From IMG/VR virus record IMGVR_UViG_3300010222_000169: DNA of 64,000 nucleotides; one strand, given 5' to 3'. This document shows, piece by piece, positions 56,097-57,610 of the stretch. The notes under the pieces are model-generated. The model did no database searches. It was not told the DNA's origin and saw only the letters and a list, made by a program, of their open reading frames with translations. The position numbers were made by a program, and so were the translations under genes. Every line of letters begins with the position of its first letter. Position 1 is the first letter of the stretch. Source of the stretch: a virus.

Positions 56097-56894
56097 ATGA
56101 CGTCCGACCATCGGACGGTCTACATGGCGGTGTTCGACCTCTCGGGGCCGCCGGCGTCGTCAGACAAGTTCATCCACTTCGATGGCGTCCTCTCGTTCGC
56201 GGCGGCGGTCGAGTCGGTCGGCTACGACGGCCTCGATGAACTCGACGACGGTGGCGAGCCCGAGTACTGGGCCGACGAGATGCCACTCCGGAAGGTCGAG
56301 GTCGGCGACGACTGGGTCTGGGCGGCGTCGGCGCTGTTCGCGCCCGTCGCAGACGACGACGGTGACCCCCAGGAGCCGCCGGAGTGGACGACCGAGCGCT
56401 GGCGCTCGCGCTTCGATCACGTCGCCAAGCACCAGCGCCGAGACACGCAGGTCGCGGTCACGTCGGGGCCGTTCAAGAGCTACAACGCGGCCCAGCCCCG
56501 AGCCGTCACGGATACGGCCCGCTTCTTCTTCGAGGTGGCCGACGACGCCGGGCCGGAGGACGTCGCCGGGCTCCTCTCGGCGCACATCACCCACATCGGC
56601 GCGAAGTCGTCACAGGGCTTCGGCCACATCAACGACTTCGAGATTCACGACGTGACTGGGAGCGTGCCGTCGGCGCTGTTCAGTAGCGGCTGTGTGCTTC
56701 GGTCGCTGCCGGTGTCGTTCGCCGATCACATCCCGAGCGGGGCGTACTTCGAGGATCGGACGACGCGGCCGCCCTACTGGCACGCCGCGAATCAGGAGCT
56801 CGCGTTCCCGCCGTTCGTCGAGGTCGACACCGACGTCCTCCGCGACGAGCTGGGCATCGAGCCGATCGGCGAGAGTGGCGGGGTGGTCGCCTGA
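56097..56894 (+). CDS. csf3: Type IV Cas5 RAMP
   Basis: HFDGVL, MPL, WAAS, SGPFKSY, G-loop IGAKSSQGFG, RPPYW. Confidence 0.88.
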   Translation: MTSDHRTVYMAVFDLSGPPASSDKFIHFDGVLSFAAAVESVGYDGLDELDDGGEPEYWADEMPLRKVEVGDDWVWAASALFAPVADDDGDPQEPPEWTTERWRSRFDHVAKHQRRDTQVAVTSGPFKSYNAAQPRAVTDTARFFFEVADDAGPEDVAGLLSAHITHIGAKSSQGFGHINDFEIHDVTGSVPSALFSSGCVLRSLPVSFADHIPSGAYFEDRTTRPPYWHAANQELAFPPFVEVDTDVLRDELGIEPIGESGGVVA

Positions 56895-57610
56895 TGGATC
56901 GTGAGGTCTACGCGGCGATCCCGTCGTACGGTCGGCCCGCGATGCTGGAGCGGTGCCTCGATACGCTGTACGCTCGCGCAGGCGATCTTATCACGGACCA
57001 TATCGTCGTTGAGCGTCGCGATCACACCTATGCCGTTCGAAACGACGCGATCACGCAGGTGCCGGACGGCGCGATCGTCCTGTCGCTCGACGACGATTGC
57101 TGGTTTCCGGCGCGATACTGTGATGACATCCGCTTCAACCTCGGGCGGGATCTGGAGAAGGCAGCCGAGCCGGGCGTCGGGATCGTCCGGACAACGCGAC
57201 GGATCGGCGACCGGCCGATGGCCGACCCGGGCTATACCAGCGAACCCACGACTTGGATGGGGGCTGGGATGCTCTTCGAGAAATCGGTCTGGAAGTCCGC
57301 CGGTGGCTACCCGCCGGACTATCTCGATGACATCATGTTCGGGGCGCGGGTCTACTACCGCGGCTATCGGAACTACAAGAGCACCCATACGTACGGTCGG
57401 CACGATGTCGACACCAAGGACGGGGGCATGTTCGAGAAGATGCAGGAGGACGAGGCACTGATCACGGAGTGTAACCCGGGGCGGTATGGCGTGCAGGGCG
57501 ACATCTGTTACAGCAAGGGTGGCGCGATTGAGAACATCACCAACATCCGGACGACACCTAGTCTTCGCCGCGAACACCGGGAGAACCGAACGGAGCTGAT
57601 ACCGCCGTGA
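56894..57610 (+). CDS. GT-A fold (GT2-like) glycosyltransferase
   Basis: AIPSYGRP, RN, LSLDDD, GGY...DD..F..R; TGATG and GTGA coupling on both sides. Confidence 0.82.
   Translation: MDREVYAAIPSYGRPAMLERCLDTLYARAGDLITDHIVVERRDHTYAVRNDAITQVPDGAIVLSLDDDCWFPARYCDDIRFNLGRDLEKAAEPGVGIVRTTRRIGDRPMADPGYTSEPTTWMGAGMLFEKSVWKSAGGYPPDYLDDIMFGARVYYRGYRNYKSTHTYGRHDVDTKDGGMFEKMQEDEALITECNPGRYGVQGDICYSKGGAIENITNIRTTPSLRREHRENRTELIPP

Follow-up and report, generated by a model that had tools for sequence, protein, structure and literature searches.

CRISPR-Cas systems of subtype IV-B, such as the Csf complex of Mycobacterium sp. JS623 (PMC7937560) and that of Rhodococcus pBD2, consist of four effector genes and a CysH-like partner gene, coded without a CRISPR array on a mobile carrier. 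Their function is still unsettled (PMC13676074, 2026), and the nearly invariant CysH-like gene is regarded as the key to it (PMC7038947, PMC8175902); AMPylation of a substrate or synthesis of a messenger has been proposed for its product, CasCysH (PMC8175902, PMC13676074). The accessories reported are CysH and, in some loci, an ADP-ribosyltransferase (10.1101/270033), and Cas6 is a rare exception with 12 instances (PMC7038947). An array-less operon of this composition is located on the stretch of 64,000 nucleotides (nt) of viral DNA from IMG/VR record IMGVR_UViG_3300010222_000169, referred to here as the window. It differs from the described systems in a glycosyltransferase (GT) gene of GT-A fold, coded between csf3 and cysH, and in a Cas6b-like gene with a long tail that follows, so the absence of Cas6 used to define IV-B does not apply to it. 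The GT gene is the subject of this analysis. The word 'glycosyl' is absent from the full text of three papers on IV-B (PMC7038947, PMC8175902, 10.1101/270033); 'type IV-B' and 'glycosyltransferase' were found together in a single paper, PMC10848311, and the GT there is an unrelated spindle-virus gene. No paper joining PAPS reductase, glycosyltransferase, DNA modification and phage was found in the literature. What is new is the GT add-on to type IV-B, which makes the operon a variant and not a separate kind of system.

The GT gene and a PP-loop gene of the phosphoadenosine phosphosulfate (PAPS) reductase fold, represented in the window by the CysH-like gene, form a fixed two-gene cassette that entered or left IV-B operons repeatedly. 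In the window this cassette seems to be translationally coupled inside the operon. The csf3 stop TGA (56892-56894) and the GT start ATG at 56894 have one base in common (TGATG), 4 nt (GTGA) are shared by the GT gene, which stops with TGA (57608-57610), and the cysH-like gene, which starts with GTG at 57607, and the remaining junctions of the operon are equally tight. It is very likely that the GT is a real and active enzyme functionally coupled to CysH.

The GC content per codon position of the GT gene (0.62/0.46/0.79) is coding-like. A HMMER search with the GT covered 1.84 billion cluster representatives, of which 19 matched at E<=1e-3, and homologues with 70-97% identity are present; a chance open reading frame (ORF) is therefore ruled out. 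The highest 19-residue Kyte-Doolittle mean is only 0.72, so the 238-aa protein is expected to be soluble, with neither a transmembrane (TM) segment nor a signal peptide. The original prediction, made from the letters of the window alone, had described a GT-A enzyme with IPSYGR, DDD and late GG motifs, without signal peptide or TM segment, overlapping csf3 on one side and cysH on the other. This description was confirmed throughout, including the identity of both neighbours, which match the type IV Cas5 profile and the PAPS reductase family (Table 1).

Taken alone, the window protein scores 12.9 bits with the Pfam GT2 family PF00535, below the gathering threshold of 23.3, and all its single-sequence GT2 matches are sub-threshold (E 0.065-0.22); its placement among GT-A enzymes is therefore based on the family profile and the fold. 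PF00535 is matched by 16 of the 22 aligned family members (best 1.2e-9), and the family profile matches solved GT2 chains at 2e-6. The AlphaFold (AF2) model is a single Rossmann-like alpha/beta/alpha domain of GT-A type, with a mean predicted local distance difference test (pLDDT) of 92.2 and a predicted template modelling score of 0.91. Foldseek gives its GT-A matches a probability of 1.00, and the VIA-align Z scores are 15.1 for B4GALNT1, 14.7 for GalNAc-T1, 13.8 for K4CP, 12.9 for SpsA and 12.0 for A197 of Sulfolobus turreted icosahedral virus (STIV).

IPSYGR occupies residues 9-14, DDD residues 66-68, and GG is found at 137, 177 and 209. Invariant in 31/31 family members are R14, D66-D67-D68, G125, G157, H170 and G177. 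Position 145 is D in 30 of the 31 and E in one, and position 142 is D or E in all of them; judged by its position only, the acidic residue downstream of DxD (D145 type) is a candidate catalytic base. The protein shares the fold, the N-terminal IPxYxR strand-loop, the DxD motif and an acidic residue about 80 residues on with GT2/GT27 enzymes (SpsA, TarP/TarS, K4CP, ppGalNAc-T, B4GALNT1; Z 12.9-15.1), and a His is placed, again by position only, like the third metal ligand of ppGalNAc-Ts. It differs from them in its low identity (9-22%), its minimal single domain, a C-terminal hairpin and basic helix of its own, and its company, which is a PP-loop enzyme and Cas proteins instead of glycan genes. 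Because of the GT-A fold, the GT2 matches of the family and the conserved active-site residues, the GT is predicted to be a catalytically intact, soluble GT2-like transferase using a nucleotide-sugar donor, and very probably an active, metal-dependent one.

Comparison with solved, viral (BFVD) and Swiss-Prot structure libraries returned generic GT-A matches only. The neighbours are glycan, protein and teichoic-acid GTs, including AglE and AglI of Haloferax and the STIV protein. The original prediction had likened the IPSxGR start to that of phage base-modifying GTs. This start aligns to PF00535 positions 3-24 and is the usual first strand-loop of GT2 enzymes, hence no mark of base modification. 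TET-associated GTs, which likewise have the GT-A fold, took ranks 15 and 23 among the BFVD matches (E about 2e-6 to 4e-6) and did not outscore generic GT2 proteins of phages. Matches to glycan GTs formally count against the original prediction by its own terms, but a fold comparison does not separate base-modifying from glycan GTs and cannot name the acceptor. Phage DNA-base GTs resemble the window GT in being virus-encoded transferases in a nucleic-acid context. The alpha- and beta-GT of T4 have the GT-B fold. The window GT, with its GT-A fold, is hence not of T4 type, and its partner is a PP-loop enzyme, not a TET/JBP-type enzyme or a hydroxymethylase, neither of which was found among the part of the window ORFs that was scanned.

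The GT family is rare. The window GT gave no tblastn match in 50,697 phage records or 72,556 plasmids; query P0016 had no match in the plasmids, and P0020 matched there solely generic GT2 genes of Streptomyces, whose surroundings (sugar and beta-lactamase genes) are unrelated. When two sub-alignments were used for pattern scans of 185,579 species genomes, a search of limited sensitivity, no relative appeared. The clade-C GT alignment had no match in IMG/VR, and a megablast of the operon had none among phages. For locus scans, the divergence within the complete alignment of 22 sequences was too high.

Inside this family, a PAPS-reductase-fold PP-loop gene adjoins the GT gene or sits one gene away in all 14 divergent lineages with readable flanks (lineages counted at roughly 50% identity or less), namely 11 type IV-B operons and three lineages on CRISPR-free or short phage-like contigs, two of the latter with methyltransferase or ParB genes. 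The functional tie to the CysH-like gene assumed in the original prediction thus gains support, as the two genes stay together wherever the context is readable, even in very divergent loci. GT-bearing IV-B loci are the window, L001-L005, L009/L010, L012/L013, L019-L035 and L119; the other loci are L006, L008, L014 and the 16-kb contig of P0013. The IV-B operons show four gene orders and a GC content of 33% to 76%, so their hosts must be very diverse. The order csf3-GT-cysH-cas6 was read in the window and L005, csf2-cas6-csf3-GT-cysH in L001-L004 (44.8-kb haloviral contig with a tape-measure gene), csf3-cysH-GT in L009/L010 and L029, and csf3-GT-cysH in L012/L013, L019, L021, L025 and L032-L035. 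With the GT upstream of csf3, csf2-cysH-x-GT-csf3 was read in L022, L023, L030 and L031, and csf2-cysH-GT-csf3 in L024. L119 has csf3-GT-GNAT-cysH. Outside csf operons, or on contigs too short to assign, the GT stands directly before PAPS_reduct in L008 and L014; L006 reads IbrA-like PAPS_reduct+DUF3440 / GT / GNAT / x / PAPS_reduct, and the P0013 contig, phage-like and without csf genes, reads Dam ... methyltransferase / PAPS_reduct / x / GT / ParB_N.

Locus L119 (263-1521; metagenome contig with 62% GC) is closely related to the window locus, but its GT does not form one continuous frame: positions 3-143 of the hidden Markov model are in one frame and 166-253 in another. The reading frame of the C-terminal part stays open into a GNAT acetyltransferase domain (protein P0007). 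Possible explanations are decay of the GT gene, a mistake in the assembly or a fusion of GT and GNAT.

With a csf2 profile, 134 IV-B loci were retrieved from IMG/VR, and the best 80 of them were examined for gene content. The CysH-like gene is present in 73 of these 80 and the GT in four. GT-linked proteins are spread over a tree of 95 CysH-like proteins; mapping the GT linkage onto it takes nine changes, at least seven of which are forced by well-supported branches, and the GT was gained or lost at least seven times on this tree. Because of these repeated changes and of the four loci in 80, the GT is considered an optional add-on and not a general effector of IV-B. The original prediction, which saw in it, together with CysH, a possible candidate for the missing effector chemistry, does not hold for IV-B in general.

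The GT tree has three clades. All members of clade one are IV-B; a haloarchaeal clade contains the window, L005, L001 and L024 (all IV-B) together with L006, in its IbrA/GNAT context; and the third consists of CRISPR-free or short phage-like contigs. The GTs of the window and L001 are 71% identical, and both genes are placed between csf3 and cysH so that stops and starts overlap, whereas csf1, csf2, csf3, cysH and cas6 of the two loci are only 26-31% identical. Strict co-divergence of GT and CysH was rejected on this pair (71% vs 29% identity). The GT is therefore an optional, horizontally moving module, always by CysH, that was fixed repeatedly inside csf operons.

The closest csf relatives of the window are circular plasmids of Natrinema thermotolerans (L015, CP031299.1) and Halomontanus rarus (L016, NZ_CP135527.1), 76-86 kb in size, with 46-61% identity in csf1-3. 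Their cysH orthologue is 48-49% identical and located about 3 kb downstream of csf3, at the end of an IbrA-like (DUF3440) / ParB / GNAT / PAPS-reductase string; the Natrinema record also carries a phage Gp37/Gp68 gene. These 'plasmids' may be plasmid-like proviruses related to the window virus. Two PAPS-reductase-fold genes, a short CasCysH and a longer IbrA-like one, were also seen in IMG/VR loci L040, L041, L044-L046, L068, L071, L091, L101, L108, L111 and L113, and the longer proteins form a well-supported clade of their own. The IMG/VR loci L062 and L063 are related, have low GC content and share the order csf1-cas11-csf2-cysH-x-csf3; they differ in the presence of a GT between x and csf3, and their CysH proteins fall in separate regions of the tree. 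Five full-length viral IV-B loci (L057, L098, L105, L110, L116) have no detectable CysH-like gene within 7 kb. Between csf2 and csf3 they have an unassigned gap of about 0.45-0.8 kb, possibly the place of another accessory gene.

Both the PP-loop motif SGGKDS and GxRxxES..R are kept in the CysH-like protein of the window. Cysteine is missing from it altogether, none is conserved in the alignments, and the catalytic Cys of ECGLH type is absent; PAPS-reductase and DndC-type sulfur chemistry are therefore excluded. The best structural match of its model (pLDDT 83.5) is the PAPS domain of human FAD synthase in complex with FAD (Z 18.4, root mean square deviation 2.3, 167 aligned residues), followed by APS reductase (Z 17.3), CysD, a subunit of ATP sulfurylase (16.6), CysH (15.8) and yeast Fad1 (14.9). 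FMN adenylyltransferase (FMNAT) and CysD use ATP to adenylylate an oxygen of phosphate or sulfate. Such AMP transfer by relatives fits the AMPylation or messenger synthesis proposed for CasCysH. This short gene is the only one of PAPS-reductase fold in the window. Phage cassettes of IbrA/IbrB type (PAPS_reduct+DUF3440 with ParB-like) also combine PAPS-reductase-fold enzymes with ParB, GNAT and sometimes GT, an association seen in L006, L015, L016 and many viral IV-B loci; unlike them, the window lacks both ParB and a gene of DUF3440 type.

The GT was never found without a PP-loop partner, and the partner is usually found without GT, which suggests that the GT consumes the product of the PP-loop enzyme. 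A pathway in which CysH and GT are coupled is the favoured reading, and its probability is estimated at about 0.45. The two enzymes would serve the same substrate pathway. Like FMN adenylyltransferase and CysD, its nearest structural relatives, the CysH-like enzyme without cysteine would spend ATP to attach AMP to a substrate oxygen, and sugar transfer by the GT would depend on the product of this step. The sugar would most likely end up on nucleic acid that the Csf complex holds or selects, so that the add-on would decorate what IV-B already marks. For the product of CysH, a doubtful possibility is an acceptor readied for the GT: CysH would alter a position in the nucleic acid and the GT would then decorate it, in parallel to the optional glucosylation of hydroxymethylcytosine in T-even phages. 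An ADP-linked donor as its product is unlikely.

A nucleic-acid acceptor is favoured because of the company of Csf, ParB and DNA methyltransferase genes, the basic GTs of non-halophile IV-B loci and the ability of GT2 enzymes to act on RNA bases. B3GNTL1, of the GT2 family, galactosylates queuosine. Most non-halophile IV-B GTs have an isoelectric point of 8.6-9.7 and K/R-rich tails, a weak hint of contact with nucleic acid. Taken by itself, the assignment of a nucleic acid as acceptor is tentative and falls somewhat short of even odds. A complex prediction for GT and the CysH-like protein scored 0.00 and counts neither for nor against coupling.

Several observations weigh against this reading. 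CysH must work without GT, as the GT is present in so few viral loci and missing from the closest csf relatives, the Natrinema and Halomontanus plasmids. No nucleic-acid GT is among the structural neighbours, and we know of no precedent for a pair of PP-loop enzyme and GT acting on nucleic acid. The family was bounded by sequence search from the window GT, and the constant place beside PAPS_reduct is valid only inside this boundary; more distant GT2 matches (a Streptomyces plasmid gene, L037, L038) have no PAPS_reduct neighbour. The literal scheme of the original prediction, adenylation followed by sugar transfer to the adenylated group, is chemically unlikely, since that group is a leaving group and not an acceptor for a GT. 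A further reading is improbable: adenylation by CysH and glycosylation by the GT would hit one position on DNA or RNA bound by the complex, and viruses would thereby silence or mark competitor or host nucleic acids without cutting. Host crRNAs processed by the viral Cas6b would be an example of such a target.

The structural matches of the CysH-like protein could also be read as those of a cassette that supplies a donor and has no nucleic-acid acceptor. The CysH-like enzyme would then be an adenylyltransferase of FMNAT/CysD type making an ADP- or AMP-linked small molecule, which the GT would use or modify to give a signal or cofactor analogue, or the GT would add sugar to a protein, for example a subunit of Csf or a factor of the host. 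GT-A enzymes require nucleoside-diphosphate donors. The absence of cysteine, the FAD-bound synthase as best match and the high scores of CysD and Fad1 agree with such a cassette, but the Z scores of FAD synthase, APS reductase and CysD are within about 1-2 units, so adenylyl transfer to phosphate is not singled out. To our knowledge, GT-A enzymes using ADP-sugars are uncommon. The ADP-ribosyltransferase of some IV-B loci (10.1101/270033) is another enzyme with an ADP-linked donor, and AMPylation or second-messenger synthesis has already been put forward for CasCysH (PMC13676074). ParB, DNA methyltransferase and Csf genes in the company of the cassette point to nucleic acids instead. A donor-supplying cassette of this kind is regarded as rather unlikely.

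The same company would suit a virus that decorates its own DNA against restriction, with GT and PP-loop enzyme belonging to a mix-and-match phage DNA-modification cassette of IbrA/ParB/GNAT type. They would have no mechanistic link to Csf, and their place in the operon would reflect shared early expression and modular recombination only. This would explain the GT clade on CRISPR-free or short phage-like contigs, among them the P0013 contig with its Dam and second methyltransferase, PAPS_reduct and ParB_N genes; the SAM-binding motif VLDVGCGTG in the gene upstream of the L014 GT; the string of IbrA-like, GT, GNAT and PAPS_reduct genes in L006 and that of IbrA-like, ParB, GNAT and PAPS_reduct genes behind csf3 on the Halomontanus plasmid; and the convergent C5 and N6 DNA methyltransferases 2-4 kb downstream in the window. 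It does not account for the GT between cysH and csf3, within the csf operon, in L022, L023, L030, L031 and L024, or for insertion into the same slot of IV-B operons otherwise 26-31% identical, and the missing hydroxymethylase and TET/JBP-type genes noted above speak against it too; it is judged unlikely. Finally, an ordinary glycan GT, acting on a virion protein, the S-layer or a lipid-linked glycan, might merely be encoded here. Its structural neighbours, Haloferax AglE/AglI and archaeal-virus A197 among them, are of this kind, and archaeal viruses often encode GTs (PMC10848311). Strict pairing with the PAPS-reductase fold in 14 divergent lineages, the embedding in csf operons, the lack of a TM segment and the absence of the family from cellular genomes and glycan clusters in the pattern scans (of limited sensitivity) make it very unlikely.

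The window has a GC content of 64% and comes from a haloarchaeal tailed virus or provirus. Besides the tape-measure gene it codes for baseplate J, a Mu F-like head protein and HNH proteins; genes for a Cdc6/Orc1-type replication initiator and for a C2H2 zinc-finger protein are in keeping with the backbone of an archaeal virus or plasmid. The order of the operon is csf1-cas11-csf2-csf3-GT-cysH-cas6b. Csf1 is 46-48% identical to that of the Natrinema and Halomontanus plasmids. The cas11-like protein gave no match in Pfam, NCBIfam or PADLOC scans and is 47-52% identical to the product of the gene between csf1 and csf2 in L015 and L016. No CRISPR array was found by TRF across the window or by a repeat search of 52800-61000, and adaptation genes, DinG and RecD are absent from the window ORFs scanned. 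The Cas6b-like protein is extended at its C-terminus by about 190 aa, and there is no nearby array for it to process. The long form also follows cysH in L005 (455 aa, 65% identity); L001 has instead a plain 240-aa Cas6, located before csf3. Directly past the operon, in convergent orientation, an HNH endonuclease and two DNA methyltransferases are encoded.

Table 1. Position of the GT gene, the IV-B operon and other annotated genes in the window
Feature	Position	Strand	Evidence and remarks
C2H2 zinc-finger protein	1890-2954	-	several C2H2 zinc fingers
Cdc6/Orc1-type replication initiator	5831-7051	-	AAA+
Tape-measure gene	29831-33682		PhageMin_Tail 8.7e-38
csf1 (type IV Cas8-like large subunit)	53914-54675	+	PADLOC typeIV_Cas8/Csf1 1.5e-10
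cas11-like small subunit	54672-55154	+	position and homology; 4-nt overlap with csf1
csf2 (type IV Cas7)	55154-56092	+	PADLOC typeIV_Cas7 1.9e-54; Pfam RAMPs 1.8e-6
csf3 (type IV Cas5)	56097-56894	+	PADLOC typeIV_Cas5 5.5e-30; TIGR03116 3.1e-18
GT-A fold (GT2-like) glycosyltransferase, predicted	56894-57610	+	238 aa; AF2 model, family profile
cysH-like PP-loop enzyme (CasCysH)	57607-58377	+	PF01507 1.4e-11
cas6b-like endoribonuclease	58370-59728	+	PADLOC Cas6b 1.6e-74, residues 4-260 of 452
HNH endonuclease, C5 cytosine DNA methyltransferase, D12-class N6-adenine DNA methyltransferase	60964-63996	-	C5 4.4e-42; D12 class 1.1e-24

The value of the GT lies in a testable lead to the chemistry of CasCysH. 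As the GT never occurs without a CysH-type partner inside its family, keeps its catalytic residues and was recruited repeatedly, it narrows the IV-B chemistry to be tested, and it points to ATP-dependent adenylyl transfer coupled with sugar transfer. Natural pairs of loci with and without GT are available in L062 and L063, and in the Natrinema plasmid and the virus described here. CasCysH is thereby linked to wider, uncharacterised phage cassettes of PAPS-reductase-fold enzymes, ParB, GNAT and GT genes.

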